Of a stretch of DNA of 64,000 nt, positions 21,084 through 53,654 are shown in pieces. This DNA is from an uncultured Rikenellaceae bacterium (GTDB taxonomy: Bacteria; Bacteroidota; Bacteroidia; Bacteroidales; VadinHA17). Where the stretch lies: the NCBI GenBank assembly GCA_964599235.1, contig CAZRDX010000052.1, positions 7,235-71,234 on the forward strand, given 5' to 3'. Position 1 is the stretch's first letter. The number at the start of each line of letters is the position of its first letter. The position numbers were made by a program, and so were the translations under genes. The notes beneath the pieces were generated by a model. The model had not been told where the DNA came from, made no database searches, and saw only the letters and a program-made list of their open reading frames with translations.

Positions 21084-22540
21084 AAACCCTTCTTGGCCTT
21101 TTAGTGACATGGTTCATTCCGCTATTCAGCGGGATGGCCCAGGACATCCCCGACCTGGACAGCCGGCGGGAGCTGTTCGTCGACACCTTTCTCATAGAAA
21201 GCATGGAAGGAACCCGTCTGGTCATGCACCATCCTGTCGACGAAGGAGAGGTGATGCCTTTTGACCGGCCGTGGGAAGGAGCTTTCAGCGCTTATGTCAC
21301 CGTGATCCGGGACGGTGATCTCTACCGCCTGTACTACCGGGGCATGCCCCAGGGACACCACGACGGCAGCCGTCAGGAGGTGACCTGCTACGCCGAGTCG
21401 AACGACGGGATCCACTGGCACAAGCCCGATCTGGGCCTTTTCGAGGTGCACGGCACCCGGCACAACAACGTCGTCCTGGCAGAGGCCGCTCCTGTGACCC
21501 ATAACTTCTCTCCCTTTCTCGACACACGCCCCGGCGTGCCCGCCGAAGAACGTTACAAAGCCCTGGGCGGCACCGCCCACAGCGGACTCATCGCCTGGTG
21601 CTCGGCCGACGGCATCCACTGGAAAAAAATGCAGCAACGGCCGGTACTCACCTGGGACGACGTCCCGTCGGTGAACGGCCCCTTCGACTCGCAGAACGTC
21701 TCCTTCTGGTCGGAGCAGGAAAAGAAATATCTCTGCTACTTCCGAGTATGGGAAGAAGTGGCAGGGAAAAAGTACCGTTCGGTGGCCCGGGCCGTCTCGG
21801 ATGATTTCCTCCACTGGCAACAACCGGTGGTGATGGATTTTGGCAACACGCCCCGGGAACAGCTTTACACCAACCAGACCGCTCCCTATTTCCGTGCCCC
21901 GCACATTTACATCTCCGTGGCAGCCCGCTTCATGCCGCACCGTCAGGTGCTCACCGAGGAACAGGCCAGGAACCTCCATGTGGATCCCCGCTATTTCCGC
22001 GACTGCTCCGACGCGGTGCTGATGTCGTCACGAGGGGGCAACCGTTATTTCCGGACTTTCATGGAAGGGTTCGTTCGTCCTGGCATCGGTCTGGACAACT
22101 GGGTCTCCCGGTCCAACTATCCTGCCCTGAACATCGTCCCCACGGGGCCTGAGGAGATGTCCCTTTACCTCAACCAGGACTACGCCCAACCCACCGCCCA
22201 CCTCCACCGCTATTCTCTGCGTACCGACGGCTTCGTCTCGGTGAACGCCCCTTACAGTGGAGGCACGCTGACCACCCGTCCTTTCCGTTTTCACGGTGAC
22301 ACTTTATTCCTCAATTTCTCCACCTCGGCCGCCGGCTACATCCTGGTGGAGATCCTCGACGAGCAGGGTACTCCCATCCCTGGCTATACGAAAGAGGAGG
22401 CCCGCGAGCTCATCGGCAATGAGATCGACAAGGCTGTCCCCTGGCCGGGGGACCAAACCCTCTCCCCCCTACGGGGACGAACGATACGCCTGCGTTTTTT
22501 CATGAAAGACGCCGATCTATACAGTTTCCGTTTCAAATGA
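21080..22540 (+). CDS. Secreted uncharacterised protein, putative beta-propeller plus beta-sandwich glycoside hydrolase
   Basis: 486-aa ORF with start overlapping the nagB stop (ATGA 21080-21083). Signal peptide [21 protein letters not shown]. Recurrent W/F-rich strand patterns ([29 protein letters not shown]). The C-terminal sandwich-like tail ends [17 protein letters not shown]. Family not recognised. Confidence 0.55.
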
Positions 22541-32149: not shown

Positions 32150-35100
32150 ATGAAACGATCCGCTCTGCTCTTCGTCGTCCTGTTCCCGCTGCTCTCACTT
32201 TCCTGTCACCGTCGGGCCTCGCTCACCCCATTCGATCTGCGATGTGAGTATGTCACCGACCCGACAGGCCTGGATGTCTCGGTTCTCCGTCCCCGTCTCT
32301 CCTGGCGGCTGCCCGGAGATGTGCCTGGTCAGCGTCAGACGGCCTGGCAGGTGCTGGCCGCCTCGTCGCCCGGGCTGCTGGATCCCGACCATGCCGACCT
32401 GTGGAACAGCGGCACGGTGGTCTCCGGCCAGTCTGTCCAGGTGGTTTATGGAGGGCGGTCTTTGCGTCCCCGTCAGGAGGTATGGTGGAAGGTACGTATC
32501 TGGGACCGGCACGGACGGGTGTCGGCCTGGAGCGACGCCGCCCGCTGGGAGACGGGGATCCACCCCTCCCGGTGGCAGGCTGCGTGGATCGGCTCGCCGG
32601 TGATGCCTCCCCGCAAACCGGGCGGTCCCAACCCGGCCTACCACTTCCGCAAGACCTTCTCCCTCACCTCCCCGCCCCGCAAAGGACGGGCCTATATCAG
32701 CGGGCTCGGCTATCATGAGTTGTACATCAATGGCCACAGGGTGGGCGACCACGTCCTCTCCCCCCACCAGTCCAACTACACCTACCGCGACACCGGCAGG
32801 TTTCCTTTCAAAGAGGTACGGCACATGTCCTACCGTGTCTATTATGAGACTTACGACATCACCCCCTACCTGCAGGAAGGAAGGAACAGCGTGGGGGTGC
32901 TTCTTGGCAATGGCTGGTTCTTCCAGCATGAACGCGACGAGGACACGATCTACAACTACGGTCTTCCCCGTCTCATCATACGTCTGGAGATGGCCGGCGA
33001 CGAAGACACACTGGTGGTGGTGAGCGACACCACCTGGCGCACCGCCACCGGCCCCATCCTCCACAACGGCATCTATACGGGAGAGATCTACGATGCACGT
33101 CGCGAACTCAGGGGATGGACCATGCCGGACTACGACGACCGATCCTGGCCGGCGGCGGTACAGCGTGCCGCCCCCCTCGGTCCTCTCATGGGGCAGATCG
33201 CCCCGGCCGACCGGCGTATCCGCGAGATCATCCCCGTACGTCGTGAACGTCTCGACGACACCACGTGGCGGTACGACCTCGGTGAGATGATCTCGGGATG
33301 GGTACGGCTGCAGGTAAAGGGCCCACGCGGCCTGCCCGTCACCCTGAAGTTCCTCGAAGAACAGGGACCCCAGTACGGCCAGACCGACATCTATATCCTG
33401 CGGGGCGACAGTCTCGAGACGTGGGAACCCCGTTTCACCTGGCACGCTTTCCGCCGGGTGATCGTCACCACACCCCGGCCTCCCGACACGCTCCGGATCA
33501 CCGGCATCGTCGTGAACACCGACGTGCCGGTCACCGGCCGCTTCGAATGTTCCAACGGTCTTCTCACCCGTCTCAATGACAACTTCATCCGTACCCAACA
33601 GGGCAACATGCACGGAGGAGTGACCAGCGACTGTCCCCACCGTGAACGACGGGGCTATACCGGCGACGGTCAGATAGCCGCCCGGGCTGCCATCTACAAC
33701 TTCGACATGGCTGCCTTTTACACCAAATGGATCGGCGACATGGCCGACGGTCAGAACCGCGAGACCGGCTTCGTGCCCTATACCGTCCCCTTCGAAGGGG
33801 GCTGGGGCGGCACCCCGTGGGGCTCGGCTTACATCATCATCCCCTGGTACATGTACCTCTACTACGGCGACACCACCATCGTCCGCCGGCACTGGCAGGG
33901 GATGGTGAAGTACATCGACTACCTGGAAAACCGCTTGGTGCCCCCCGGCATCGTCGACGAACAGCTGCTGGGCGAGTGGGTGCCTCCCCAGCCCGAACAG
34001 ATACCCAAAGACCTCGTAAGTACCGCCTACTTCCACCACGACCTGCAGATCATGGAACATCTTGCGCACGTGCTGGAAAAAGAGTCAGAAGCCGACCGGT
34101 TCCGGGCCCTGGCACACCGTGTGAAGGAAGGATTCAACAAGCAGTGGTTCCACAAGGAGGAGATGTCCTATTCCATAGGCCGTCAGGGGGCCAATGTCTT
34201 TGCCCTGGGCTTCGACCTGGTTCCCCGCCGCTACACAGGGGATGTTTTCCGGACGCTCGTCGATCATCTTATCAACGATACCGAAGGACACTTCGACACC
34301 GGCATGATGGGTACGCCTTTGCTGTTGCAGGTGCTGGCGAAGTATGGTCGCAACGAACTGGCCTATACTCTGATGAACCAGACCGACTACCCCTCTTTCG
34401 GGCTGGAGATGCTCAAAGGCTCCACCACCTTGTGGGAAACATGGGACGGCACCCTTTCTCACAGCCATCCCATGTTCGGCAGTGTATGTGAGTGGCTGTA
34501 CAACAGCCTGGCAGGTATCCGCCCCGACCCTGCCGCCCCGGGGTTCCGACATATCCTCATCCACCCCCTGCCTGTGTCAGACCTGCAGCATGTCACGGCC
34601 ACCCATCTCACCCCTTACGGGCCGGTCACCTCTTCCTGGAGACAGGAGGGCGACGACCTGGTGCTGGAGGTGACGGTGCCGCCCAACACCACTGCCGCCG
34701 TCTCGATCCCCGCCACCGACGAGGGGAGTGTCACGGCCCGGGGGGTCTATGGTCAGCCGGGTGTGGGCGTCCATGCCGTCGGCTATGAAAAGGGGCGTAT
34801 GCTCTTTGAGACCTGTGCGGGAGAATACCGTTTTGTCTCGCACGGTGCGGCGGCGCTCCTGCCCCGTTCGTTGCCCACGGCACCGGTGGTGATGCCCCGC
34901 GACACGCTCTCATGGTCGGGCGACACTCTCCGGGTGACCATGGCCACCCCCCATGCCGGAGCCGTCATACGTTTCACCCTCGACGGCACGCTCCCCGACA
35001 CCACCTCCTCCCTCTACGGACAACCCCTGCTGATCACCCGCGACACCCGCGTGAAAGCGCGTATCTTCCTCCCCGACGGCACGGCCGGACCTGTGGCCCA

Positions 35101-35578
35101 CCGTGACTACACTTTCCTGCGCCGGGGTATCCATGGCCTGCATTATGCTTATTACGCCGGTCTCTGGCAGCAGGTGCCCGACTTCACGCGCCTGCATCCC
35201 TCAGCCCGCGGCACCCTGCCCGCCCTCTGTCTGGACAGCCTGCCCCACAACAAAGACCGTTTCGCCCTGCGTCTGACCTCATGGCTGCGCGTACCCGTAA
35301 CGGGGACCTACACGATCTACCTCATCTCCAACGACGGCAGCCGTCTCTACCTCGACGGCCGGGAGCTCATCGTCAACGACGGCCCCCACGGGGCCCGCGA
35401 ACGTTCAGCCACCACCCACCTCACACAGGGCATCCACCAGCTGACCATCGGCTATATGCAGGTGGGCGGAGGCTACTACCTCGCCCTGGAATGGAAAGGC
35501 CCGGGAAGAAAAAGGGAAAAAATACCGCCATCGCTCTTTTTCCTCGACGAAGAACAGGCAAAAAAAGCTGGAAAGTGA
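32150..35578 (+). CDS. GH78 alpha-L-rhamnosidase lipoprotein with C-terminal CHB_HEX_C-like plus PA14 cassette
   Basis: 1142-aa ORF with lipobox LLSLSC. Rhamnosidase N-terminal motif LRCEYVTDPTGLD...PRLSWRL. Catalytic-domain motif DCPHRERRGYTGDG. C-terminal AVIRFTLDG and LTSWLRVPVTGTYTIYLISNDGSRLYLDG. Confidence 0.9.
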   Translation: MKRSALLFVVLFPLLSLSCHRRASLTPFDLRCEYVTDPTGLDVSVLRPRLSWRLPGDVPGQRQTAWQVLAASSPGLLDPDHADLWNSGTVVSGQSVQVVYGGRSLRPRQEVWWKVRIWDRHGRVSAWSDAARWETGIHPSRWQAAWIGSPVMPPRKPGGPNPAYHFRKTFSLTSPPRKGRAYISGLGYHELYINGHRVGDHVLSPHQSNYTYRDTGRFPFKEVRHMSYRVYYETYDITPYLQEGRNSVGVLLGNGWFFQHERDEDTIYNYGLPRLIIRLEMAGDEDTLVVVSDTTWRTATGPILHNGIYTGEIYDARRELRGWTMPDYDDRSWPAAVQRAAPLGPLMGQIAPADRRIREIIPVRRERLDDTTWRYDLGEMISGWVRLQVKGPRGLPVTLKFLEEQGPQYGQTDIYILRGDSLETWEPRFTWHAFRRVIVTTPRPPDTLRITGIVVNTDVPVTGRFECSNGLLTRLNDNFIRTQQGNMHGGVTSDCPHRERRGYTGDGQIAARAAIYNFDMAAFYTKWIGDMADGQNRETGFVPYTVPFEGGWGGTPWGSAYIIIPWYMYLYYGDTTIVRRHWQGMVKYIDYLENRLVPPGIVDEQLLGEWVPPQPEQIPKDLVSTAYFHHDLQIMEHLAHVLEKESEADRFRALAHRVKEGFNKQWFHKEEMSYSIGRQGANVFALGFDLVPRRYTGDVFRTLVDHLINDTEGHFDTGMMGTPLLLQVLAKYGRNELAYTLMNQTDYPSFGLEMLKGSTTLWETWDGTLSHSHPMFGSVCEWLYNSLAGIRPDPAAPGFRHILIHPLPVSDLQHVTATHLTPYGPVTSSWRQEGDDLVLEVTVPPNTTAAVSIPATDEGSVTARGVYGQPGVGVHAVGYEKGRMLFETCAGEYRFVSHGAAALLPRSLPTAPVVMPRDTLSWSGDTLRVTMATPHAGAVIRFTLDGTLPDTTSSLYGQPLLITRDTRVKARIFLPDGTAGPVAHRDYTFLRRGIHGLHYAYYAGLWQQVPDFTRLHPSARGTLPALCLDSLPHNKDRFALRLTSWLRVPVTGTYTIYLISNDGSRLYLDGRELIVNDGPHGARERSATTHLTQGIHQLTIGYMQVGGGYYLALEWKGPGRKREKIPPSLFFLDEEQAKKAGK

Positions 35579-35605: not shown

Positions 35606-35640
35606 CTTTTGTCACGAAATGACAAAAGAGTTATTTTTAT
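35606..35640 (+). terminator. Hairpin plus U-rich tail after the GH78 gene (possible intrinsic terminator or attenuator)
   Basis: Perfect 9-bp inverted repeat CTTTTGTCA / TGACAAAAG (35606-35614 and 35620-35628, 5-nt loop CGAAA), followed 2 nt later by TTATTTTTAT. The stem has only 3 G:C pairs, so its strength is modest. Confidence 0.4.
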
Positions 35641-35647
35641 TGACCAG

Positions 35648-36415
35648 GTGACAAAGTATTGTTCCATCCTTCTTCTGCTGGCCTTTTCCCTGGCCGGCTG
35701 CCGTTCCGGTCCACACCGGGAGGAGGGGGAGGTTTCTTTTCCCCCAGGCACGGAAGATCGGGGCTGGCAACAGCTTTTCGATGGTCGTACCCTGAACGGC
35801 TGGCAGGCATTGGGGCTCGACAGCATCCCCACCGTTTACTGGCGTGTGGAAGACGGGACGATCCACAAGAGAGCGCGCGACCGGGTGGCACCCCTCCCTG
35901 ACGGCAGCCCGCCGCCTTCATGCGATCTGATGAGCCGCGACACCTTTCTCAATTTCGAACTGGCCTTTGAATGGAAGATCGCCCCGCTTGGCAACAGCGG
36001 CATCAAATACAACGTCTCGGAAAAGATGTCCCTGCGCTACGGCACCACCCACGCCCTGGGCTTCGAGTATCAGATCATTGATGATGCGCATTATTCCGAG
36101 CCTTTGTCACCCATGCAGCATACCGCCGCCCTGTATGCTCTGGTAGCTCCGGAGAACGCAGAACCACGACCTGCCGGCCGGTGGAACACCGGACGCATCA
36201 TCTTGCGGGGGCACCACGGAGAACACTGGCTCAACGGTAAGAAAGTGTTGGAATACGAGACGGGAACACCCCGTTTCGATTCTCTGGTACGCCACAGCAA
36301 ATACCACAAGTACCCGGGCTTCGCCCGCCGCCGCTACGGTCACATCGTCCTGCAGGACCATGCCGACGACGTATGGTTCCGTAACATCCGCATCCGTACT
36401 TTCGACAAACCATAA
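35648..36415 (+). CDS. DUF1080 (3-keto-disaccharide hydrolase family, PF06439-type) lipoprotein
   Basis: ORF 35609-36415 starts at TTG 35609, which lies inside the hairpin. I prefer GTG 35648, which gives MTKYCSILLLLAFSLAGC. DUF1080 pattern GWQQLFDGRTLNGWQ, YWRVEDGTI, and C-terminal GHIVLQDHADDVWFRNIRIR. Confidence 0.8.
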   Translation: MTKYCSILLLLAFSLAGCRSGPHREEGEVSFPPGTEDRGWQQLFDGRTLNGWQALGLDSIPTVYWRVEDGTIHKRARDRVAPLPDGSPPPSCDLMSRDTFLNFELAFEWKIAPLGNSGIKYNVSEKMSLRYGTTHALGFEYQIIDDAHYSEPLSPMQHTAALYALVAPENAEPRPAGRWNTGRIILRGHHGEHWLNGKKVLEYETGTPRFDSLVRHSKYHKYPGFARRRYGHIVLQDHADDVWFRNIRIRTFDKP

Positions 36416-36434
36416 CCCTCTTAAATCTCAAGCC

Positions 36435-37910
36435 ATGACCACACGAAGGAAATTCATTCGCAACAGTTCGGCCGGTCTGTTGGCCGGTTCTGCCGCCCTC
36501 TCGTTCTCGCCACGTTCGTATGCCCGCATCCTGGGTGCCAACGACCGTCTTCATGTGGCGGTGGTAGGCATACGAGGTCGCGGCGGCAGTCATATGAGGG
36601 CCTATGCCAAGATGAAGAACGTCGAGGTAAAGTACCTGGTCGACATTGATGAAAACCTTTTCAAGGCCCGTCTGGACGAGATGGATCAGCTGGCGGGATA
36701 TCGTCCCCGCACGGAATGGGACATGCGTCGTGTCTTCGATGACAAGGACCTCGATGTCGTCTCTTTCGCCACGCCCAACCACTGGCATGCCCTGGGCACG
36801 GTCTGGGCGGCCATGGCCGGCAAGCACGTGTATGTGGAGAAGCCGGCGATGCACAACATCTGGGAAGGCCGGCAGATGGTCCGCGCCGCCGAGCGCTACA
36901 ACGTGCTCATCCAGGTTGGTTTCCAGAACCGTTCCTTCGACACCACCAACCGTGCCATCCGTTTCATCCGCGAAGGTCATCTGGGAGAGATCTACCTGGC
37001 CCGCGGCCTCTGCTTCAAACCCCGCGGCGATATCGGCGTTTACCCCGACGGGCCGATGAAACCGGGGGAAAAGTTCCGTCTCAACGCCGAACGTTCGCGT
37101 TATGAGCCGCCTTACACCGAGGAGTATCTCCGCAAGGTCCACTACGACATGTGGCTCGGCCCCGCTCCCAAGAGACCATTCAACCGCAACCGTTTCCATT
37201 ACAACTGGCACTGGTTCTGGGATTACGGCAACGGCGACACCGGCAACCAGGGGCCTCACCAGTTCGATGTGGCTCGCTGGGCCCTGGGCGAAGAGGAGAT
37301 GCCTGTACGCGTCAGCTCCATCGGGGGCATCTACAAGTTCAAGTCGATGCAGGAGACCCCGAACACCCAGACCTCCATCTTCCAGTATGCCGACGGCAAG
37401 ATGCTGGAGTTCGGCACCCGTGGCCTCTACACCAACCCCGAAGGGATCCTTCTTCCCGACATCCGGCTCACCGATGACGGCAAGATCTCCAAAGGCTCCA
37501 AGGCCACACCGGTGAAGATCGGCACCCTCATCCTGGGCACCGAGGGATGGATGCAGATCGATGCGGGCGGCAACTGGCAGACCTTCTTCGGACGCAAGAA
37601 CGAACCGGGCCCCACCTCCGGCGAGAAAGACTCCTCGTACAACCCCATGGATCTCACCGGCGGCAGCAGCGGCGGCCACTTCGGTAATTTCATCCATGCC
37701 GTCCGCAACGGCGACCGTACACTTCTCTCCTGTGACATCGTCACGGGCTACCGCTCCACCTGCCTCCCCCTGCTCGCCAACATCTCCTACCGCGTAGGCA
37801 GGGAACTGCATATCGACCCCGCTACCGAAACCATCCTCCACGACGAGGAAGCATCCCGTCTGATGACCCGCGAATACCGGAAAGGATTTGAGGTACCAGA
37901 TCTTTCATAA
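36435..37910 (+). CDS. TAT-exported Gfo/Idh/MocA family NAD(P)-dependent oxidoreductase
   Basis: ORF 36360-37910 trimmed to ATG 36435. Twin-arginine signal TTRRKFIRNSSAGLLAGSAALSFSPRSYA. Rossmann start LHVAVVGIRGRGGSH. VVSFATPNHWH and VYVEKP are typical of the family. Confidence 0.9.
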   Translation: MTTRRKFIRNSSAGLLAGSAALSFSPRSYARILGANDRLHVAVVGIRGRGGSHMRAYAKMKNVEVKYLVDIDENLFKARLDEMDQLAGYRPRTEWDMRRVFDDKDLDVVSFATPNHWHALGTVWAAMAGKHVYVEKPAMHNIWEGRQMVRAAERYNVLIQVGFQNRSFDTTNRAIRFIREGHLGEIYLARGLCFKPRGDIGVYPDGPMKPGEKFRLNAERSRYEPPYTEEYLRKVHYDMWLGPAPKRPFNRNRFHYNWHWFWDYGNGDTGNQGPHQFDVARWALGEEEMPVRVSSIGGIYKFKSMQETPNTQTSIFQYADGKMLEFGTRGLYTNPEGILLPDIRLTDDGKISKGSKATPVKIGTLILGTEGWMQIDAGGNWQTFFGRKNEPGPTSGEKDSSYNPMDLTGGSSGGHFGNFIHAVRNGDRTLLSCDIVTGYRSTCLPLLANISYRVGRELHIDPATETILHDEEASRLMTREYRKGFEVPDLS

Positions 37911-37927
37911 ATAAAAACCCACCCACC

Positions 37928-38992
37928 ATGAGAACGCTGCAATACTTAAGTATCCTCACTCTCCTCCTGCTGACGGGCTGTCATCCTTCCGCCACGAAGG
38001 ACACGGCCGGCGCTTTACCGGTACGTGTGGATGTGGACACGGCCGCTCGTCGCGCCGATATCTTCATTGGCGGACAACCGTTCACCTCCTTTCTGTACAC
38101 CGACACGCTGGCGGCCCTCACCAAGCCGGTGCTGTGGCCCGTAATCTCCGCCGCCGGCGATACGCTCACCAGGGGGTTTCCCCTTCATCCCGTCCCGGGA
38201 GAACGTACCGACCATCCTCATCACATCGGCATCTGGTTCACCTACGGCAATGTCAATCACATCGATTTCTGGGGCAATTCGCCCGCCATGCCCGACTCTC
38301 TCCGGGACCGTCTGGGCTGGATAAGGAACGTGAAGATCCTGGAGGCTGCCGGCGGCGACAGCGTAGGCACCCTTGTCTACGAAGCTTCCTGGCAGGATTT
38401 CCGGGGTCGTCCTATGCTGCAGGAACATACGGTACTGACCTTCAGGGGAGACCGGCACGACCGCTTCGTGGAGCGCACCACCACCCTCACCGCCCTGGAC
38501 GATACCATCGTGTTCCATGACACCAAGGAAGGAATGATGGCCATCCGGGTGTCCCATCCCCTGGAACTGCCCTCAGACAAACCTTCCACCTTCACCGATG
38601 AACACGGGAACGTGACCATCGTGGGGGGAGCCCGGGACACCATCGCCAACGGCGATTATCTCACCAGCAGGGGGATCACAGGAAAAGATGCCTGGGGCAA
38701 AAGGGCCGAATGGGTCTGCCTCCACGGGAAAGTGAATGGCCAGGAAGAAAGCATCACCATTTTCGACCATCCGGGCAACCCCGGCCATCCCACCTACTGG
38801 CATGCCCGGGGCTACGGTCTTTTCTCGGTCAACCCCCTGGGCCAAAAGACCTTCAGTAAAGGAAAGGAAGAGCTCAACCTCACCCTCGCCCCCGGCGAGT
38901 CGGTCACCTTCCGCTACGGGATGCTCTTCCACAGCGGCCCGGTGAGCAAAGAGATGCTCGACCAGTACTATCAACAGTACATCACTCCCTGA
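37928..38992 (+). CDS. DUF6807 (PmoA-like) family lipoprotein
   Basis: 354-aa ORF with lipobox LLLTGC. LTKPVLWPV...GERTDHPHHIGIWFTYGNVNHIDFWGN and FDHPGNPGHPTYWHARGYGLFSVNP resemble the family usually found next to Gfo/Idh/MocA genes. Confidence 0.7.
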   Translation: MRTLQYLSILTLLLLTGCHPSATKDTAGALPVRVDVDTAARRADIFIGGQPFTSFLYTDTLAALTKPVLWPVISAAGDTLTRGFPLHPVPGERTDHPHHIGIWFTYGNVNHIDFWGNSPAMPDSLRDRLGWIRNVKILEAAGGDSVGTLVYEASWQDFRGRPMLQEHTVLTFRGDRHDRFVERTTTLTALDDTIVFHDTKEGMMAIRVSHPLELPSDKPSTFTDEHGNVTIVGGARDTIANGDYLTSRGITGKDAWGKRAEWVCLHGKVNGQEESITIFDHPGNPGHPTYWHARGYGLFSVNPLGQKTFSKGKEELNLTLAPGESVTFRYGMLFHSGPVSKEMLDQYYQQYITP

Positions 38993-39007: not shown

Positions 39008-39039
39008 AAAAAAAGGGTGTGCACTGCACACCCTTTTTT
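39008..39039. terminator. Bidirectional rho-independent terminator between the convergent DUF6807 and susD-like genes
   Basis: A7 (39008-39014), 8-bp stem GGGTGTGC / GCACACCC (39015-39022 and 39026-39033, 3-nt loop), T6 (39034-39039). Read directly. Confidence 0.75.
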
Positions 39040-39055
39040 GTCCCCACATTCTTCA

Positions 39056-40714
39056 TCAGTAGGGCTGGCCTGTTCCCTGGAGGAGCCAGAACTTCGACCA
39101 GGCACTGTTCTTACCATCATCTTCGGAGAAAACGGTTTCCTCGAGCCCTTCGATGGCCGCTTCGCAATTGTCACGGTTCAGGTCCAGTTCCTTGACCGAA
39201 TAGTAGAACCTCAGCGGCAGTGCATCTCTTTTCACTTCTTTTCCCGGTCTGAGGCGGGGATAACCTGTCCTTCTCCAGTCGAACCATGCTTCGGCCGCTG
39301 CGGTCCAGCTGGCGATCCATTTCTGTTCCATGATCTGACCAAGGGTACCGTCGAAGGCGACGGAGGGCTGGGCTATGTAGGTATCATAATCACCGACAAC
39401 GCGCCATGCAAGGAACGATTGACGGATACCCTCCTCGTAATGGCTTTGGGCATCCTCACCCGTCCACCCTTTGAGCGCCGCCTCAGCAATGATGAAATGC
39501 ACTTCCGAAGCGCTCAGCATACGCGCCACCAAGAGATCGCCCGAAGCCTGCTTGTACATGGTGGCCAGATGTGAAGCATGCGGGTTGTAGGAAGCCTGCT
39601 CCAGGTTGGGGTTGAGATTGTAAGCCTGGGGCACGATCGACCAGGCCGGCGGCAAGCCGACATAATCGGGATCCTCATCCAGCGGATAACCGTACTTCGC
39701 CTCGTACTGGGCAGCGATCGAGTCCCCGACATAACGCACTCCGCCTACGATCTCATCACGGAAATGATCGGCATAGTCCACCTTCAGCGGAATATCCACC
39801 TTCCTGGCCCAGACATGTAGACGGGGATCATTGAAATATTCCATCGTATCCACCAGGGTGGCACACATCTTCAACCGCATATAGGCTCCTTGCTTCTCCT
39901 GGTTGAAGACGGTATTGGAAGGCCAGGAGTCGGAAGCATTGGTACCCGGGAAACGCAGGTTGGCCTCTTCCGAAGCTCGCAGGATCAAAGGATAATCGTC
40001 GGGATGATCGACGATACGTTCAATCCCTTCACGGGCATACTCCGGCTCTTTATAGGAGAGCCTCATGTAATAACGCAAAGCCAGCGAATTGGCAAACTTG
40101 CGCCACTTACTCACGTTCCCTTCGTAGAGAACATCCTGGACGGCATCGATACCTTCCTGGGGGTTTCTGGCCAACAAGGCATTGGCCGTATCGAGGTCGG
40201 TCAGGATGCCGTGGTAGATATCCTGCTGGGCATCATAGGGAGGACGGATGTATTCTTCCTCTCCATTCTCTCCTTTCAGGGCCTTGGTATAAGGCGCATC
40301 GCCCCACAGGTCGGCGATCATGCCGAAGACATAGGCCCGGATGATCAGGGCCACGGCGCGGTGAAAATCAAGATGCATCTCCTCGGCCTTTTCCAGCATC
40401 GCCTGTGTATTGCGAAGCAGATCGTAATATCCCCCCCAGTCGCTGCTGCTGGGGTTCCAGTCATAGCTGTTGTGCGAGCCGGACCAGCCATCTTTCTGGG
40501 TGTGTTGCATCACTCCCGCCAGATCACCAAAACCAAGACGAACCACCCCCTGGCCTGTGCCGGCAATGACGGTGCTCATCAAAAGATTGGGATGCGCAAT
40601 GGCCGGATCCACCCCGTTGGGGTTCACATTCAGCTCATCCAAGTCCTTGCACGAAAAGACCGAAAAAGAAAAGAGGATGAGCAAAAGGATGATCCTGGAT
40701 CTGTATGTGTACAT
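39056..40714 (-). CDS. SusD/RagB-family nutrient-binding outer-membrane lipoprotein
   Basis: 552-aa ORF directly downstream of the susC-like gene (20-nt gap). Lipobox FSVFSC followed by acidic KDLDEL. Helical/TPR-like composition and a typical C-terminal W/F-rich tail. Confidence 0.9.
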   Translation of the reverse strand: MYTYRSRIILLLILFSFSVFSCKDLDELNVNPNGVDPAIAHPNLLMSTVIAGTGQGVVRLGFGDLAGVMQHTQKDGWSGSHNSYDWNPSSSDWGGYYDLLRNTQAMLEKAEEMHLDFHRAVALIIRAYVFGMIADLWGDAPYTKALKGENGEEEYIRPPYDAQQDIYHGILTDLDTANALLARNPQEGIDAVQDVLYEGNVSKWRKFANSLALRYYMRLSYKEPEYAREGIERIVDHPDDYPLILRASEEANLRFPGTNASDSWPSNTVFNQEKQGAYMRLKMCATLVDTMEYFNDPRLHVWARKVDIPLKVDYADHFRDEIVGGVRYVGDSIAAQYEAKYGYPLDEDPDYVGLPPAWSIVPQAYNLNPNLEQASYNPHASHLATMYKQASGDLLVARMLSASEVHFIIAEAALKGWTGEDAQSHYEEGIRQSFLAWRVVGDYDTYIAQPSVAFDGTLGQIMEQKWIASWTAAAEAWFDWRRTGYPRLRPGKEVKRDALPLRFYYSVKELDLNRDNCEAAIEGLEETVFSEDDGKNSAWSKFWLLQGTGQPY

Positions 40715-40734: not shown

Positions 40735-43700
40735 TTAGAAAGTAAGATTGATCTTGAAACCTACGGGGATCACCCAGGGTTCCACATTGTACCTTTCGAT
40801 ACCCTGCTTGAAGCCCGAGGCCTCGGCCTGGAAGGCCCGCTCAGGATCGATGCCGATCTTGGCTTTGGTCCAGATCATGATGTTCCGGCTGTACAAGGAA
40901 ACAAGCAGGTCCTGCATGCGCAGTTTTTTCACAAAGTTCCCGGGCAAATGGTAACTGAGGGTGATCTCCCTGAGCTTCACAAAGTCGGCATCGAAAGTGG
41001 AGGGGGTCATGAAATCCCAGGGGTAGCTGACCACCCAGGGGGTATATGGGATGGGATTGTTCTCTCCCAGATTCTCGGAATAGCTGCCGTCGGCGTTCTT
41101 CACCACGCCCGGCACGAAGATACCGTCGTACACCGTGTAGCCGCTCCAGCTTTCGGGGAAACCGCCATACTCGGGAGTAGGCCCGCCCACCACATGGAAA
41201 CCGTTCTTGATCCATTCGTCCTCGTGGGCCACCAGCCAGTCGCGCAGTTCCTTGCCGCTACGTCCTCCGGGGTTGATGGCCCGGCGCAACCAGTCTTCCG
41301 AGTTGGCATCCTCAGCCATGTAACGGTAGGTCTGTGAAACGAACTGTCCGCCATGCCGCCAGTCGAACGTGGCACTCAGGACGAAACCTTTGTACGAGAG
41401 GGTGGTCTGTGCCCCGAAGAGGAAATCGGGATTGTAGTTACCGATCTTGTTGCGGGCATCGGCCACCTTGATCTCCTGCCATTCGTAATCACTCCCTCCG
41501 ATAATGGGATAGCCGTAATAAGGCGAATTGGGATCCGTGACACGGAGGATCTCGGCATCGTACAGGTCGCCGATATCATCCCCTTCGTACACCCAGGCTC
41601 CTCCTTTGGCATCGCTCCAGAACTTGATCAGGTCGACTCCCGGAGCGATACGGGTAAGACGGGTCCTGTTGCGTGAGAAATTGACCGACACATCCCACAC
41701 CAGGTCTCCCCGTCGGAGGGGTACCCCCCCGACCATGAACTCCCACCCGCGGCTCTCGATGAGGCCGGCGTTGACATTCACACTACTGAAACCAGAAGAG
41801 GTGGCAATGGGGATGTTACGGATGATCTGGTTCCGGTTGTCGATGTTGTAATAGGTTCCGTCAAAATGGACCCTGTCGTTGAAAAGACGCACCTCGGCAC
41901 CCACCTCCCACGAGGTGGCTTCCTCAGGCTTGAGGTTGGGTGTGAGGATGGTCCCCGGCTTGGCCAGACGGGTGGCCTCGCCCCACTGGCCGATATCGGA
42001 GTAGGTGGGATAGAGCTGGTAGGGAGGTGCGTCGTTCCCTACCTTGGCCCAGCCGGCACGCAGCTTGAGCAGATCGACCTGATCGCCCAGACTGAGCATT
42101 TTGTCCAGCAACATGCTGAGAGAGACGGAAGGATAGAAATACGACCGGCTCTCGGGAGGCAGGGTGCTCGACCAGTCGTTGCGGGCCGTCAGGTCGAGGT
42201 AGAGCATGCCGTTGTATGAGAGGTTGGCTGTTCCGTACAGGCTGTAGATGGCCTTCTGGCTGAGTGAGCTCCAATAGTTGAGCGAACCGCTCTTGATGTT
42301 CCGCACATTGTACACATTGGGCACTACCAGCCCGGCTCCCGGCTTGGAAGCATTGCCCGCCGTGGTGCTCTCCTGATAGAGGGCGTTCCCCCCTGCCGAG
42401 ATCACCACCCCGAACTTGCCCACCTCTTTGTCGAACGTGGCCAGAAAATCAGCATTCCGCTCATACCGCTGCAGGTTGATGATGCCGTATGCTCCGTTGT
42501 TGGGCTCCTTGGTGTAGCTGGGCGGGATCTTCGTCTCTCGCCTCTCCCCGTAACGGTCGATGGAATATCTTCCCCGCAGGCTCAGCGAAGGCAATACCTG
42601 CCAGGTGAGCGACATGTTGCCGAAGATACGGTTGCGGTTGAACATGTTGTCCACCTCATAGGCCAGGAAATAAGGGTTGTTGTACAGCCCGTTGGAGGGG
42701 GTGCGTTGCTGTAATCCCTCCTGGCCGGGCTCCCAGTAGTCGCGCAGCAGCTTAATGGGAATGTTCAGCGGCACCTTGTATGCCCACTCCAGCGGGTTGG
42801 TCCCCCGGTTGGAAGAAGGGCGGTTGTTCGACCAGGTGTTCGCAATACTGACGTTCATCGAAAAGGTGAGATCTTTCGTGGCATGGATGTCCGATCCGAC
42901 GGTCAGGTTGTTACGGTGCAGATCCGACCCCGGCACGATACCGCGGTTGGTCATGTTGGTCAACGAGATGCGGTAGTTGGCATTGTCGGTCCGGTTCATG
43001 ATCGACGCTCCGTTGGTGGAGGTGATGCCGGTCTGTACAAAATCCGCCACATTGTCGGGATACGACACGAGGGGGATGGGCACCTTGTTGCCGTTGGCAT
43101 CCAGGGGGCTGTGCCACTGAATGGCAAAGTAGCCCTTGTCACACTCCGGACCGGCACCGGCCGCCTGTGCCGGATCGACCACCAGGGTGCCGCCCACAAT
43201 ATCGGGAGTGAAAGGAAAATATCCCGAGGAGAAATGTTTCTGGGTATCAAAGTACTTGTACGGCATGTCAAACACCGTGTTGGTGCTGAGGGTGACGGTG
43301 ACCCCCTTGCTTTTCTTTCCTTTTTTGGTGGTGATGAGCACCACGCCGTTACCGGCCCGCGAACCATAGAGGGCTGCCGCACTGGGCCCTTTCAGGATGG
43401 TCACACTCTCGATGTCGTCGGGGTTGAGGTCGGAAATGGCATTCCCGTAGTCGACGATGTTGCGCTCACCGATCTGGCTGGTGTTGTTCAGTCCGTTGAT
43501 CATCGGCACGCCGTCGACGACGAAGAGGGGCTGGTTGTCACTGCTGAGCGAAGTGGCACCACGGATCACCATGCTCACCGACGAGCCTGTCCCTCCGGTG
43601 GAATTGACCGTCACACCGGCCACCTTGCCTGCCAGCGAATTGACCACGTTCTCCTGCACCACCTTGTTCAGCTCTTCACCATCCACCTTACCCACAGCAA

Positions 43701-44121
43701 AGCCCAGCGATTTCTCCTGGCGTGTGATGCCCAGGGCGGTGACCACCACCTCATCAAGGTTCTTCACGCTCTCTTTCATCACCACATCGATGACACGCCG
43801 GTCACCCACACGCTCTTCATGCGTCTCGTAACCCACAAAAGAAAAGACCAGGACGGCATCAGCTCCCGGCACACGGATGGCATAATGGCCGTCCCCCCCG
43901 GTGATCGTCCCGCTGCTGGTACCCTTGATCAGCACCGTCACACCAGGCAGCGACTGGCCATCCTCGGAAGTCACCGTGCCGGTCACCTCAAAACCCCGCT
44001 GAATGAACCGGACAGTACCCTCCCCCGCCCAAACGGCCATACCGAACCACTGGACTAGCAAGAAAAGTACCGCCGCCATCCGCAGGACTTTCCGGTTAGA
44101 GAAAATGAATCCCTGTTCCAT
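40735..44121 (-). CDS. SusC/RagA-family TonB-dependent outer-membrane transporter
   Basis: The ORF 40735-44154 begins at TTG; ATG 44121 or ATG 44079 is more likely. CarboxypepD_reg-like VTGTVTSEDGQSLPGVTVLIKGTSSGTITGGDGHYAI, plug motifs VVVTALGI and IESVTILKGPSAAALYGSRAGNGVVLITTKKG, and a terminal beta-strand ending in F. Confidence 0.9.
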   Translation of the reverse strand: MEQGFIFSNRKVLRMAAVLFLLVQWFGMAVWAGEGTVRFIQRGFEVTGTVTSEDGQSLPGVTVLIKGTSSGTITGGDGHYAIRVPGADAVLVFSFVGYETHEERVGDRRVIDVVMKESVKNLDEVVVTALGITRQEKSLGFAVGKVDGEELNKVVQENVVNSLAGKVAGVTVNSTGGTGSSVSMVIRGATSLSSDNQPLFVVDGVPMINGLNNTSQIGERNIVDYGNAISDLNPDDIESVTILKGPSAAALYGSRAGNGVVLITTKKGKKSKGVTVTLSTNTVFDMPYKYFDTQKHFSSGYFPFTPDIVGGTLVVDPAQAAGAGPECDKGYFAIQWHSPLDANGNKVPIPLVSYPDNVADFVQTGITSTNGASIMNRTDNANYRISLTNMTNRGIVPGSDLHRNNLTVGSDIHATKDLTFSMNVSIANTWSNNRPSSNRGTNPLEWAYKVPLNIPIKLLRDYWEPGQEGLQQRTPSNGLYNNPYFLAYEVDNMFNRNRIFGNMSLTWQVLPSLSLRGRYSIDRYGERRETKIPPSYTKEPNNGAYGIINLQRYERNADFLATFDKEVGKFGVVISAGGNALYQESTTAGNASKPGAGLVVPNVYNVRNIKSGSLNYWSSLSQKAIYSLYGTANLSYNGMLYLDLTARNDWSSTLPPESRSYFYPSVSLSMLLDKMLSLGDQVDLLKLRAGWAKVGNDAPPYQLYPTYSDIGQWGEATRLAKPGTILTPNLKPEEATSWEVGAEVRLFNDRVHFDGTYYNIDNRNQIIRNIPIATSSGFSSVNVNAGLIESRGWEFMVGGVPLRRGDLVWDVSVNFSRNRTRLTRIAPGVDLIKFWSDAKGGAWVYEGDDIGDLYDAEILRVTDPNSPYYGYPIIGGSDYEWQEIKVADARNKIGNYNPDFLFGAQTTLSYKGFVLSATFDWRHGGQFVSQTYRYMAEDANSEDWLRRAINPGGRSGKELRDWLVAHEDEWIKNGFHVVGGPTPEYGGFPESWSGYTVYDGIFVPGVVKNADGSYSENLGENNPIPYTPWVVSYPWDFMTPSTFDADFVKLREITLSYHLPGNFVKKLRMQDLLVSLYSRNIMIWTKAKIGIDPERAFQAEASGFKQGIERYNVEPWVIPVGFKINLTF

Positions 44122-44389
44122 AACAAAAGCAGTTAGTTTAGGTTTCAATGTCAATACGGGTAAAATACGTTCAGGGTCGTTTCAAAGAACTTCTTCTTTG
44201 GTTAAAAATAAGAATTTTTGGAAAGAACATCTTCCCATATTCACATTCTTTTGACTTTTTCACTGAAAAACAAGAAATTCTCCAATCAAGAAGGTGAAAA
44301 TACCATAAAGATCAGTCAAATTACCATAGATAAAAAGCGGTTATTTTACGTCTGAATAATAGTGTCATAACTTCTAAAAAGAAAATACG

Positions 44390-45589
44390 ATGAATTTTTC
44401 CAGAAGAAATGCTCATTCCGGCAGGGTGCTCATGCTGGCCCTGTTCTTTTCTGTTTTCTCTTTCCTGATCTCCTGTCATTCCGGCCCTACGGGACAGGAG
44501 AGTAAAAAGTCGTTCACCGGATATCTCACGACGGCCGGTGACAGCACCGACCGTTTCCAGGTAGCGGTGGTAAAAGGCACGCCTTATGAGATGGGGCAAC
44601 AGCTGGGCACGATGCTGAAGGATGAGATCACCGTCTGTCTGAACACTTTTCTGGCCGCTGCCCGTCAGGAGTCGCCCGAGGCTTTTGGTAATGAAGCTCT
44701 TGACAAGGCCTGGGAGGTGAATTCCCCCTTTATTGACGAACGGGTGAAAGAAGAGATGAAAGGGCTGGCCGATGCGACGGGTCTCGATCTTCAGGATATC
44801 CGGCGTGCCCACATGGTTCCTGTGGTAGGTACCTACTCCTGCAGCGGGGTGGTGGTATGGGGTCCTGCCACGGCCACGGGCCATACTTATCAGATACGCA
44901 ACCTCGATTTCTCCAAGGATGCCGGCCTGCAGGACCATCCTTTGGTGGTGGTCTACGTCCCCGACAGCGGCGCCGTACAGGTAAACGTCTCCTTCGCCGG
45001 ATACATCGCCTCGCACACCGGCATGAACGCCCGTCATCTGGTCTTTGGCGAGATCGGCGAGTCTCCCGCCTCGGAATATCCTTACGATCTGCACGGAGCC
45101 CATTTCAGCTTCCTTTTCCGCAAGATGATGTACGATGCCACCTCGCTGGACGACATCATCCGCACCATCAGGACCACCCCGCTCATCAAGCGTTATTTCC
45201 TCTTTTTCAGCGATGGCCGCGAAGCTTCCCAGGGTGGCGTGAAGGTGCTGGTCTCCACTCCCGACTCGGTCAAGTACCACATCTGGCGTGACAACGATCC
45301 CGACGACATCGATGCACCCAACGTCCTGCCCAACGTGGTGTACAACACCATGAACAACCCCGTGGCCTTCAAGATGCTCAAGGAATATTACGGCCGGTTC
45401 GATGCCGACAAGATGATCGAGCTCTCACGTGCGGTGGCCGACGAGGACGGCAACCTGATGAACGTCGTGTACGACGCTACCACCATGGAGATGTGGATAG
45501 CTTACGCCAACGGTCAGGAAGATGCCTCCCGGCAGGGATATGTCCGTCTTTCCCTGGACGAGCTGCTGGAACAGGCCGGTCTGAAATAG
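44390..45589 (+). CDS. Peptidase C45 / acyl-CoA:6-APA acyltransferase-like Ntn-hydrolase lipoprotein
   Basis: 399-aa ORF with lipobox FLISC. N-terminal VVKGTPYEMGQQLG. The internal Cys in VVGTYSCSGVVVWG is consistent with the self-processing nucleophile. IRNLDF follows. Confidence 0.65.
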   Translation: MNFSRRNAHSGRVLMLALFFSVFSFLISCHSGPTGQESKKSFTGYLTTAGDSTDRFQVAVVKGTPYEMGQQLGTMLKDEITVCLNTFLAAARQESPEAFGNEALDKAWEVNSPFIDERVKEEMKGLADATGLDLQDIRRAHMVPVVGTYSCSGVVVWGPATATGHTYQIRNLDFSKDAGLQDHPLVVVYVPDSGAVQVNVSFAGYIASHTGMNARHLVFGEIGESPASEYPYDLHGAHFSFLFRKMMYDATSLDDIIRTIRTTPLIKRYFLFFSDGREASQGGVKVLVSTPDSVKYHIWRDNDPDDIDAPNVLPNVVYNTMNNPVAFKMLKEYYGRFDADKMIELSRAVADEDGNLMNVVYDATTMEMWIAYANGQEDASRQGYVRLSLDELLEQAGLK

Positions 45590-48343: not shown

Positions 48344-49369
48344 ATGAAAAGGATCATCACCCTCATCACCGCATCGCTGCTCCTGTTGCCGGCGACAATT
48401 CTGTTCACCTCCTGCAGTCAGCGAAGGTCTTCTGAGGACAGAGGCAAGAGTTCACAACCCGCTCCTGTCACGCAGGCAGAACGTCTGGGATTTCCGGCGG
48501 GCAGCAAGGTGTTGATCCTGCATGCCGACGATGCTGGCATGTGCGAGGAGGCCAACGAGGCTGTCCGGTACCTTCTGGAACACGGTCTCATCCAGTCGAC
48601 ATCGGTGATGGCTCCCTGTCCGGCGGCCGACAGCATGCTGCTTTGGGCCAGGGCCCACCCCGACATGGATGTGGGCATGCATCTGACCCTCACGAGCGAA
48701 TGGCAAAGCTGGCGATGGGGACCGGTGAGCGATCCCGCGACCGTCCCCGGCCTTGTTGATCCCGACGGCATGCTGTGGCACGAGGTGCCCCAGGTGGTGG
48801 CCCACGCCACTCCCGACGAGGTGGAACGTGAGATACGTGCCCAGATCGACAAAGCCATCGCCCTGGGCCACCGTCCCACCCACCTCGACACCCACATGGG
48901 CACCCTCTATGCCTCCCCCGCCTTCGCCGAACGCTTCCTCAAGGTGGCAAAAGAATACCATATCCCCGCCAATGCCATCGACCTCTCCGATACGGCCGTG
49001 GCCCGTCAGTTCAGGGATGCGGGCTACCCCATCGACGACCGGATGATCGGCCTGCTGGAACATTACGACCTGCCCAAACTCGATTTCTTCACCAGCGCCC
49101 CCAAGGGCGAGACCTACAAAGACAAAAAGGAAAAGTTCAAGGCTCTCGTTCGCTCTCTCAGACCGGGTCTTACCGAGATCATTTTCCACCCTGCCGTGGA
49201 AAGCGACCATCTGAAAGAGATCACCAACTCCTGGCAACAAAGGGTCTGGGAATACAGAATGTTCACCGACCCCGAGATGATACGGTTCTTCCGGGAAGAA
49301 AGCATTGTCTTCACCAACTGGATCGAGATCATGCAACGATTTGAGGATCAGAAGAGTAAAAAACAATAA
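48344..49369 (+). CDS. ChbG/YdjC-family carbohydrate deacetylase lipoprotein
   Basis: 341-aa ORF with lipobox ILFTSC. YdjC motifs LILHADDAGM, VGMHLTLTSEW and THLDTHMG. Confidence 0.85.
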   Translation: MKRIITLITASLLLLPATILFTSCSQRRSSEDRGKSSQPAPVTQAERLGFPAGSKVLILHADDAGMCEEANEAVRYLLEHGLIQSTSVMAPCPAADSMLLWARAHPDMDVGMHLTLTSEWQSWRWGPVSDPATVPGLVDPDGMLWHEVPQVVAHATPDEVEREIRAQIDKAIALGHRPTHLDTHMGTLYASPAFAERFLKVAKEYHIPANAIDLSDTAVARQFRDAGYPIDDRMIGLLEHYDLPKLDFFTSAPKGETYKDKKEKFKALVRSLRPGLTEIIFHPAVESDHLKEITNSWQQRVWEYRMFTDPEMIRFFREESIVFTNWIEIMQRFEDQKSKKQ

Positions 49370-52159: not shown

Positions 52160-52417
52160 ATGTGTCTGGCCGTACCTGGTAAGATCATCTCCATTGACGA
52201 CAGCGATCCGGAGATGAAGATGGCGAAGGTCGATTTTGACGGAATGGTAACCGACATCTGTATCCAGTGGCTTCCTGAGAAGGTGAAGGTGGGGGATTAT
52301 GTGCTTGCGCATGTGGGCATGGCGCTGAACAGGATCGATGAGGAGGAGGCGTTGCAGACGCTGGAGGCGTTGCGACAGATGGGTGAGCCGGATGAAGGTA
52401 CGGTCCCGCCCTCGTAA
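52160..52417 (+). CDS. hypC: Hydrogenase assembly chaperone HypC/HupF family
   Basis: ORF 52061-52417 trimmed to ATG 52160, giving the canonical N-terminus MCLAVPGKIISI. 85 aa. VGDYVLAHVGMAL motif. Confidence 0.9.
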   Translation: MCLAVPGKIISIDDSDPEMKMAKVDFDGMVTDICIQWLPEKVKVGDYVLAHVGMALNRIDEEEALQTLEALRQMGEPDEGTVPPS

Positions 52418-52454
52418 GTGCCGGTGCTGCGGCGCCGGCCAGCATATTTCCGCG

Positions 52455-53623: not shown

Positions 53624-53654
53624 CTAAGGCAAGGAGGGAGCAATAAGAAATGTT

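Follow-up and report, generated by a model that had tools for sequence, protein, structure and literature searches.

A probable exported 3-keto glycoside-cleavage module in a Bacteroidales glycan locus, with DUF6807 as the conserved partner of its Tat-exported dehydrogenase

Three consecutive genes, all on the + strand, stand at the end of a glycan-utilisation array in a 64-kb stretch of DNA from an uncultured Rikenellaceae bacterium (the window, that is, the whole stretch analysed here). The first, at 35648-36415, encodes a DUF1080 (PF06439) lipoprotein, predicted to be a 3-keto-glycoside 1,2-lyase and 2-hydroxy-3-keto-glycal hydratase of the BT2157/AL2 type. The second, at 36435-37910, encodes a Gfo/Idh/MocA (GFO) dehydrogenase of 491 aa with a twin-arginine translocation (Tat) signal, and the third, at 37928-38992, encodes a DUF6807 (PF14100) lipoprotein of 354 aa, an uncharacterised conserved partner of Tat-exported GFO dehydrogenases and the main subject of this text. 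A previous reading of the letters alone (the sequence-only reading) had pointed to these genes, and all of them are present, in the order it gave. They are separated by spacers of 19 nt (DUF1080/GFO) and 17 nt (GFO/DUF6807) for which folding predicts no structure. DUF1080, GFO, and DUF6807 each occur once in the window, and a Pfam search of its 64 kb revealed no xylose-isomerase-like TIM-barrel gene.

The mechanical bounds of the open reading frames, 35609-36415 for DUF1080 and 36360-37910 for the dehydrogenase, set both starts too far upstream. The DUF1080 gene most plausibly starts at the GTG at 35648, yielding a protein of 255 aa that opens with MTKYCSILLLLAFSLAGC, a lipoprotein signal whose lipobox, LAGC, lies downstream of this codon, while the dehydrogenase starts at the ATG at 36435 (MTTRRKFIRNSSAGLLAGSAALSFSPRSYA, 491 aa). 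The resulting lengths agree with those of the relatives (253-264 aa and 486-495 aa, respectively). The N-terminus of the DUF6807 protein, MRTLQYLSILTLLLLTGC, contains the lipobox LTGC. The twin-arginine signal of the dehydrogenase is the one already quoted, TRRKFI, with R4, R5, and F7 invariant among 30 homologues. Given two lipoprotein signals and a Tat signal, all three products are exported.

Stepwise cleavage of glycosides through 3-keto intermediates is known from other systems (Liou 2020; Liu 2021, PMC8121099; Nasseri 2024, bioRxiv 10.1101/2024.03.25.586180). BT2157, a DUF1080 protein, consumes 3-keto-trehalose, and BT2158 was proposed to be a Tat-exported, cofactor-locked oxidant (Liu 2021, PMC8121099). 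By NMR and crystallography, the Tat-GFO protein AL3/BT3 was found to oxidise glycosides at C3 through transhydrogenation with a 3-keto-sugar, whereas the TIM-barrel protein AL1/BT1 is a 3-keto-beta-glucoside lyase, and the DUF1080 protein AL2/BT2 is a 3-keto-alpha-glucoside lyase and glycal hydratase (Nasseri 2024, bioRxiv 10.1101/2024.03.25.586180). The first oxidation is carried out by BT2158/AL3, whose tightly bound NAD is recycled by 3-keto-glucose (PMC8121099; bioRxiv 10.1101/2024.03.25.586180). The system reconstituted in vitro ran very slowly, and its authors suspected that a component was lacking; moreover, the product 3-keto-glucose isomerises mainly to the furanose, depleting the form that the dehydrogenase can reduce (bioRxiv 10.1101/2024.03.25.586180). 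The sequence-only reading had suggested a redox route of glycoside cleavage for the trio. This idea stands insofar as the DUF1080/Tat-GFO pair matches the BT2157/BT2158 and AL2/AL3 pathway, but that pairing is already published, and the new part is DUF6807.

The DUF1080 protein matches PF06439 (3keto-disac_hyd) along the entire profile (148.2 bits, 3.6e-43, positions 1-187 of 187; gathering cut-off, 26.8 bits) and is an ordinary single-domain member of the family. Its relatives in the Protein Data Bank (PDB) extend from 7.5e-47 (4JQT) to 2.5e-27, and include 8TDA (4.2e-29), a DUF1080 entry with a code next to those of AL3 (8TDF and 8TDH). The protein holds an E-x-Q (FEYQ) and a Q-x-H (LQDH) motif, which align with the same motifs in 4JQT; they are equated with E164/Q166 and Q273/H275 of BT2 by motif resemblance and the published list of conserved residues. 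Its orthologues are syntenic and 43-68% identical.

The dehydrogenase, with matches to PF01408, PF19051, and PF22725, has a Rossmann domain that bears the EKP motif and, C-terminally, a substrate domain that holds the catalytic His. Its best sequence matches in the PDB are the AL3 structures 8TDF and 8TDH (E = 1e-23), followed by two other C3-oxidising enzymes, DgpA and levoglucosan dehydrogenase, while the C1 oxidisers AAOR (7e-11) and GFOR (6e-10), as well as GH109 (3e-5), match more weakly. Foldseek comparison of its AlphaFold2 (AF2) model, which has a predicted local distance difference test score (pLDDT) of 73.8, placed 8TDF_A at the top (E = 4.9e-21, template modelling (TM) scores of 0.63/0.68), with other GFO enzymes close behind. 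The invariant features of its clade are YVEKP, which bears the lysine of the EKP motif, Q164, and H275, the latter aligning with h223 of 8TDF, which is the catalytic H252 of AL3. The position of AL3 Asp248 is occupied by Asn271, giving N-x3-H instead of D-x3-H, and this same Asn/His arrangement is found in P2B11, an active glucuronide-3-dehydrogenase (N205/H209). The clade is strongly conserved: identity to the nearest relative amounts to 86%, to the Zobellia and Maribacter proteins to ~70%, and to those of Calditrichota and Ignavibacteria to 66%. Among the NCBIfam models, the best match is BT_2158_fam (NF058561), with 130 bits (E = 9e-38, profile positions 1-285 of 487), against a curated equivalog cut-off of 750 bits. 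With AL3 as the best match by sequence and, narrowly, by fold, yet a score of 130 rather than 750 bits, the protein is read as a glycoside 3-dehydrogenase-like enzyme from a clade of its own, distant from BT2158, and not as its orthologue. The ranking of its relatives suggests that oxidation would take place at C3, and not at C1.

The third protein matches PF14100 over nearly the whole profile (254.1 bits, 2.3e-75, positions 3-269 of 270; gathering cut-off, 27 bits), a family with more than 6000 matches at 90% clustering and 3288 clusters at 50% identity (E <= 1e-3). No functional study of DUF6807, PF14100, or a "PmoA family protein" was found in the searchable literature, in agreement with the sequence-only reading, which had described its role as undefined, and a profile search of the PDB returned no solved structure even at E = 10. 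The AF2 model is all-beta, with a pLDDT of 86.5 and a predicted TM score (pTM) of 0.85. In Foldseek, it is led by GalM-type mutarotases (E = 3e-7, TM ~0.4, a likeness at the level of the fold), and it also matches the mutarotase-like domains of glycoside hydrolase (GH) family 36, of OpgD, and of polysaccharide lyases (PLs). The model thus places DUF6807 securely in the galactose-mutarotase-like beta-supersandwich fold class, whereas its membership in the mutarotase family proper is not secure, because the Foldseek matches are not accompanied by any profile similarity to GalM.

Across 65 representatives of 30-44% identity, R82, D95, H96, H98, N110, W115, D198, K200, R207, W262, D280, N284, R294, Y296, G297, and N302 are near-invariant. 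Such a set of ~16 polar and aromatic residues is, to judge from the alignment, what sugar-binding active sites typically show. Model confidence is lower in the D-H-P-H-H loop than elsewhere, as would be expected for a loop that depends on a ligand or a metal. Lipoboxes are present in the window protein and in most of its relatives, some members having a plain signal peptide. The literal reading of the "PmoA" label as a methane oxygenase is rejected, as the model is soluble and all-beta, without transmembrane helices beyond the signal peptide; a search against the AMO/PmoA Pfam family gave no match even at E = 10, and the label of PF14100 is a misnomer.

Four of ten multidomain DUF6807 representatives are fusions with DUF1080, in both domain orders. 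The other fusions in this set involve a lactonase-type propeller, a metallo-beta-lactamase domain, peptidase S51, AhpC, and an esterase. The fused database proteins P0143, P0136, and P0215 provide the cases of a propeller with seven blades, a metallo-beta-lactamase domain, and an AhpC/thioredoxin-like domain. The only report of a genetic context for PF14100 found in the searchable literature is that of the Verrucomicrobia cosmid Lac161, a putative operon of which places PF14100 between the genes of two proteins with reported beta-galactosidase activity, one of them a membrane-bound-dehydrogenase/cytochrome c protein (PMC5342196). This arrangement possibly represents a second, cytochrome-linked context for DUF6807.

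The genetic neighborhood of DUF6807 was surveyed in GTDB species genomes, where 594 relatives were found and 80 loci from Bacteroidota, Acidobacteriota, Calditrichota, and Ignavibacteria were kept with 10-kb flanks. Gene calling recovered DUF6807 in 79 of the 80 loci, which are phylogenetically non-independent, and partner families were obtained by annotation-free all-against-all clustering of the genes within four positions. GFO is the top partner family, present within four genes in 60/79 loci, with 69/73 GFO genes on the same strand. The sequence-only reading had proposed a census of this kind, and the co-conservation of DUF6807 with Tat-GFO proved to be very strong. A same-strand GFO gene is immediately adjacent in 49/80 loci, and the order DUF6807-DUF1080-GFO, with the dehydrogenase one gene further, occurs in seven additional loci. 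Pfam confirms a GFO protein in 42/78 upstream and 10/80 downstream neighbors. GFO genes make up 33% of the immediate neighbors, 4.7% of the genes at positions 2-4, and 0.4% of those at least five genes away. The enrichment at the immediate positions corresponds to an odds ratio of 118 (p = 1e-32, from non-independent loci), and chance adjacency of both genes is rejected on this ratio. The RRxF motif was detected in 58/74 nearby GFO proteins, including essentially all of those of ~450-500 aa. Reciprocally, all three orthologues of the window-type GFO examined in other genomes (3/3) have DUF6807 downstream.

DUF1080 is the second partner family, found in 21/79 loci, always on the same strand, while the next family reaches 11/79. 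It accounts for 20/559 genes within four positions of DUF6807 and for 0/484 further away. In most loci, DUF6807 is the sole non-GFO partner nearby. With its presence in only 21/79 loci, DUF1080 is a facultative member, and the part conserved as a core consists of GFO and DUF6807; thus, the trio described by the sequence-only reading is kept in full across phyla in the clade of the window, but its first gene is not obligatory. The full trio, in the gene order of the window, occurs in metagenome-assembled genomes (MAGs) labelled Bacteroidales, Calditrichota, Ignavibacteria, and Deferribacteres. Genes for rhamnosidases (GH78 or GH106) or GH2 often lie before it. The sequence-only reading had suggested that the trio may serve a linkage beyond the reach of the GH enzymes, a proposal to be qualified, as the trio is also found outside GH arrays. 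In four relatives, the identities of DUF1080/GFO/DUF6807 are 68/86/75, 66/82/66, 49/72/55, and 43/66/48%, so that the three genes diverge in parallel, synteny being retained down to 44-48% DUF6807 identity. A different arrangement was observed in a Calditrichota locus (L002, 9152-12274), in which DUF1080 is followed by two tandem DUF6807 genes, with no GFO within 10 kb.

The history of both partners has also been linked. When the clade of the adjacent GFO was mapped onto the DUF6807 tree, six state changes were required, compared to 15.8 expected, and 0/500 shuffles reached six, indicating that the GFO-DUF6807 pair travels and diversifies as a unit. DUF6807 proteins located beside window-type GFOs cluster together across phyla. 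A generic DUF6807 protein, indifferent to the GFO beside it, is rejected, since its subclades follow the GFO clade on the tree.

Taken with the known 3-keto systems, a reasonably likely reading is that the trio constitutes one exported module that cleaves glycosides by an oxidise-then-eliminate (3-keto) route, with DUF6807 acting on the keto-sugar intermediates. The short spacers and the single strong terminator past DUF6807 give the trio an operon-like packing. The dehydrogenase would fold and take up an NAD(P) that it does not exchange before leaving the cytoplasm through the Tat system. In the periplasm, in a module fed by the adjacent SusC/SusD pair, it would oxidise a hydroxyl, most likely the C3-OH, of an imported glycoside or oligosaccharide. 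The acidified H2 would then permit the 1,2-elimination of the aglycone or the next sugar, followed by hydration of the resulting 2-hydroxy-3-keto-glycal, and DUF1080 would be in charge of the elimination, the hydration, or both, as in the Bacteroides and Alistipes systems. Finally, the dehydrogenase would reduce the released 3-keto-sugar and regenerate its cofactor, and through this recycling the net reaction would be a hydrolysis. DUF6807 would be the third exported component, acting on keto-sugar intermediates. Because it is the regular neighbor of such dehydrogenases across phyla, it is probably a missing enzyme of the known oxidise-then-cut route.

Two roles can be considered for it. The first, a possible one that falls somewhat short of an even chance, is that of an additional 3-keto-glycoside lyase/hydratase with a stereochemistry not covered by DUF1080. 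This role fits the position of DUF6807 as the sole non-GFO partner in most loci and the lack of a TIM-barrel lyase gene in the window, and it would give a sense to the DUF1080 fusions, which would join consecutive steps. The second, more doubtful, is that of a mutarotase-type ring or anomer isomerase that holds the 3-keto-sugar in the reducible pyranose form. It fits the mutarotase fold class, the isomerisation of 3-keto-glucose to the furanose, and the slowness of the reconstituted system. By removing the furanose trap that limits cofactor recycling, an isomerase would make DUF6807 the "missing component" that has been suspected. Considered as a whole, the proposal that DUF6807 is a new enzyme family, with a mutarotase-like fold and an active site made up of D-H-x-H, D/K, and R/Y residues, and that it works specifically with Tat-exported NAD-locked GFO enzymes as their catalytic partner, either as a third, non-homologous class of 3-keto-glycoside lyase/hydratase or as a 3-keto-aldose ring/anomer isomerase, is tentative, with the balance falling just short of even.

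Several observations weigh against these proposals. The well-studied BT and AL operons function without DUF6807, and biochemical data for DUF6807 proteins are absent from the searchable literature. Regarding the dehydrogenase, it does not reach the equivalog threshold of NF058561 (130 vs 750 bits) and is only 20% identical to AL3, so its substrate and regiochemistry are matters of inference, and in Foldseek other GFO folds score nearly as high as AL3. The resemblance of DUF6807 to mutarotases, at a TM of ~0.4, comes with a root-mean-square deviation (rmsd) of 9-11 A, and is one of fold only; HHalign of its profile against E. coli GalM gave a probability of 0.12, which is no signal, and for this reason the catalytic residues of GalM are not mappable onto DUF6807. 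Similarly, no second Pfam family, PF01263 included, matches it at E <= 10. Furthermore, many carbohydrate-active enzymes (CAZymes) contain a domain of this fold that has no catalytic role, and the fusion with a lactonase propeller hints that some DUF6807 proteins may work with C1-oxidising (lactone-forming) dehydrogenases. In the census, 19/79 loci have no GFO within four genes of DUF6807, and the non-independence of the loci means that the p-values overstate the significance. Some relatives hold a TIM-barrel gene in place of, or besides, DUF1080, and DUF6807 does not simply stand in for DUF1080 or for a TIM-barrel lyase, because some loci contain it together with both. In particular, the notion of DUF6807 as a plain replacement of the TIM-barrel beta-lyase BT2156 is weakened by Zobellia and Ignavibacteria loci that carry both.

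Among the alternatives, the one that survives best, although unlikely, is that DUF6807 is not an enzyme but a lipid-anchored glycan binder or scaffold, which would capture oligosaccharides or tether the soluble Tat-exported dehydrogenase at the membrane beside SusC/SusD. Many GH31, GH36, and PL enzymes use the fold to bind sugars without catalysis, the window protein and most of its relatives have lipoboxes, and its subclades co-diversify with the GFO clade, as interacting proteins do. However, the ~16 near-invariant charged and aromatic residues, including the D-H-x-H loop, are maintained across ~3300 clusters, which is more typical of an active site. The members with a plain signal peptide would have no lipid anchor, the fusions to DUF1080, lactonase, and esterase domains point to catalysis, and the published BT and AL enzymes need no obligate complexes.

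It is quite unlikely, on the other hand, that the genes form a module for free aldoses, in which the dehydrogenase would be a periplasmic aldose 1-oxidoreductase similar to GFOR or AAOR and DUF6807 a true mutarotase for the anomers released by the GH78, GH2, and GH92 enzymes of the locus. GFOR and AAOR are indeed Tat-exported, NADP-locked GFO enzymes that are detectable as relatives of the window protein, the locus is rich in exo-glycosidases that release monosaccharides, the DUF6807 model is mutarotase-like, and one DUF6807 protein is fused to a lactonase-type propeller. Nevertheless, the C3 oxidisers AL3, DgpA, and levoglucosan dehydrogenase are the top sequence matches, above the C1 oxidisers, and neither a GalM catalytic motif nor profile similarity to GalM was found in DUF6807. 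Such a module would also leave no role for DUF1080, a family characterised only on 3-keto-glycosides that is nonetheless adjacent here and fused to DUF6807 elsewhere.

Least probable of all is a dehydrogenase that works alone as an NAD-dependent glycosidase, in the manner of GH109, GH4, or GH188, with every step in one active site and DUF1080 and DUF6807 as dispensable helpers or devoted to other substrates: GH109 enzymes have the GFO fold and bind NAD, they (2IXA, 6T2B) and the NAD-dependent sulfoquinovosidases (8QC5, 8QC6) are detectable by sequence or fold, and most DUF6807 loci have only a GFO and no known lyase nearby, but the GH109 match (3e-5) is far weaker than that to AL3 (1e-23), a DUF1080 lyase/hydratase gene that is syntenic across phyla lies 19 nt upstream, and this reading would account neither for the strict GFO-DUF6807 linkage nor for the fusions of DUF6807 with DUF1080.

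The trio is framed by two hairpin-forming sequences. Between the GH78 gene and the DUF1080 gene, just 5' of the start of the latter, 35606-35628 is a perfect AU-rich inverted repeat, TTTTGTCA-N5-TGACAAAA, with a stem of 9-10 bp (complete sequence, CTTTTGTCACGAAATGACAAAAG). The hairpin that the sequence-only reading had placed after the GH78 gene is hence present, but weak: it folds at -12.5 kcal/mol (z = -1.5), a value that is not exceptional, as 13/200 shuffles fold as well. It is terminator-like on both strands, and could be a weak terminator or a protein-binding, operator-like site. Past the trio, a strong bidirectional intrinsic terminator at ~39008-39039, consisting of an A-tract, the GGGTGTGCACTGCACACCC stem-loop, and a T-tract, separates DUF6807 from the convergent susD gene; it folds at -22.2 kcal/mol (z = -3.9), which 0/200 shuffles equal.

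The upstream neighbor of the trio, at 32150-35578 (+), encodes a GH78 alpha-L-rhamnosidase with a C-terminal PA14 domain (Pfam Bac_rhamnosid6H, 2e-90, plus four more rhamnosidase domains), and GH78 also precedes the trio in the related loci L083 and L086. On the opposite side, and convergent to the trio, lie a SusD-like gene at 39056-40714 (-) (Pfam SusD-like_2, 1.4e-79) and a gene for a SusC-like TonB-dependent transporter at 40735-44154 (-) (Plug, TonB_dep_Rec_b-barrel, and CarboxypepD_reg domains). They are the import pair of the locus, and a convergent SusD/SusC pair follows DUF6807 in loci L001, L081, L083, and L085 as well. Esterase, GH31, and YdjC genes are found past this pair.

The trio closes a co-directional array of ~38 kb, from ~1149 to 38992, whose other genes encode a BNR protein, two GH92 proteins, a GDPD protein, a purple-acid-phosphatase-like metallophosphoesterase, a DUF3748 protein, an Nramp protein, GH31-PA14, two FG-GAP proteins, GH2, and GH78-PA14. 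Within 1149-35578, the BNR protein is sialidase-like, the GH92 proteins are alpha-mannosidases, GDPD is a glycerophosphodiesterase, and Nramp is a metal transporter. This gene set suggests that the target is a phosphodiester-containing mannose/rhamnose heteroglycan. Metallophos, YdjC, GH92, and FG-GAP genes also adjoin the GFO-DUF6807 pair in Ignavibacteria and Zobellia.

Four long open reading frames of the locus, at 5580-6899, 10180-12399, 21080-22540, and 44390-45589, have no Pfam match. The last of them, divergent from the SusC-like gene, encodes a product of 399 aa, and counterparts of 389-395 aa, also without a Pfam match, hold the same position in L081, L083, and L085. In L083, a gene that runs off the locus (20818-21065) was called with a YdjC-family product of 525 aa that matches both YdjC and DUF1080; this call would be a second fusion tying DUF1080 to this glycan system. 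The YdjC protein of the window (48344-49369, 341 aa) is unfused, and the window has no second DUF1080. Further along, 52338-56727 comprises a gene for a sigma-54 activator and, behind it, those for the small and large subunits of a [NiFe]-hydrogenase (PF14720/PF01058 and PF00374, respectively). The window sequence was found in only two DNA runs, one of them from a hydrothermal vent metagenome, and in no RNA run. The source assembly is that of a hydrothermal-vent metagenome, and the hydrogenase genes fit a hydrogen-using vent bacterium.

Oxidative, non-Koshland cleavage of glycosides has only recently been established in gut Bacteroidales, and is thought to open alpha-, beta-, thio-, and otherwise recalcitrant glycosides with broad specificity. 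This locus and its relatives show that the pathway is built differently in environmental Bacteroidota, Calditrichota, Ignavibacteria, and Acidobacteriota, where its most conserved feature is DUF6807, a family of ~3300 clusters at 50% identity under a misleading "PmoA" label. The assignment of a reaction to it would correct thousands of annotations, could explain the slowness of the reconstituted pathway, and would show how periplasmic NAD-locked dehydrogenases keep turning over. The value of the present analysis lies in a robust, cross-phylum assignment of the uncharacterised DUF6807 family to this pathway, together with concrete roles for it that can be tested, as orthologues are available in the cultivable and non-pathogenic Zobellia (a GFO-DUF6807-TIM cluster), Pedobacter, and Mucilaginibacter (DUF6807-DUF1080-GFO clusters).

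Compared to known systems, PmoA of the particulate methane monooxygenase shares with DUF6807 only a historical annotation label. GalM (PF01263) belongs to the same beta-supersandwich fold class as the DUF6807 model, and both would be sugar-handling proteins; however, GalM is cytoplasmic, whereas DUF6807 is exported and lipidated, and no sequence or profile similarity between them was found. With GFOR from Zymomonas and AAOR from Caulobacter, the predicted module shares a GFO enzyme that the Tat system exports with its cofactor in place, as well as a ping-pong redox exchange between two sugars. Both enzymes are likewise locked to their cofactor, NADP, which is not exchanged, but they oxidise C1 of free aldoses and lack DUF1080 or DUF6807 partners. 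GH109 alpha-N-acetylgalactosaminidases and GH188-type sulfoquinovosidases also combine the GFO fold and a bound NAD with transient C3 oxidation and elimination, and often hold export signals. These enzymes perform all the steps in one active site with no partner, while the GFO of the window keeps its partner genes and matches them much more weakly.

The closest systems are BT2156-BT2160 from Bacteroides thetaiotaomicron and AL1-AL5 from Alistipes. As in the window, an exported Tat-GFO is encoded beside a DUF1080 lipoprotein in a glycan-utilisation context, and the DUF1080 proteins appear to share the E-x-Q and Q-x-H motifs. Unlike them, the window has no TIM-barrel beta-lyase (BT2156/AL1), second cytoplasmic GFO (BT2159/AL4), or DUF6377 regulator, and its module forms part of a 38-kb GH array accompanied by SusC/SusD. 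Instead, it carries a gene that the BT and AL operons lack, that of DUF6807.

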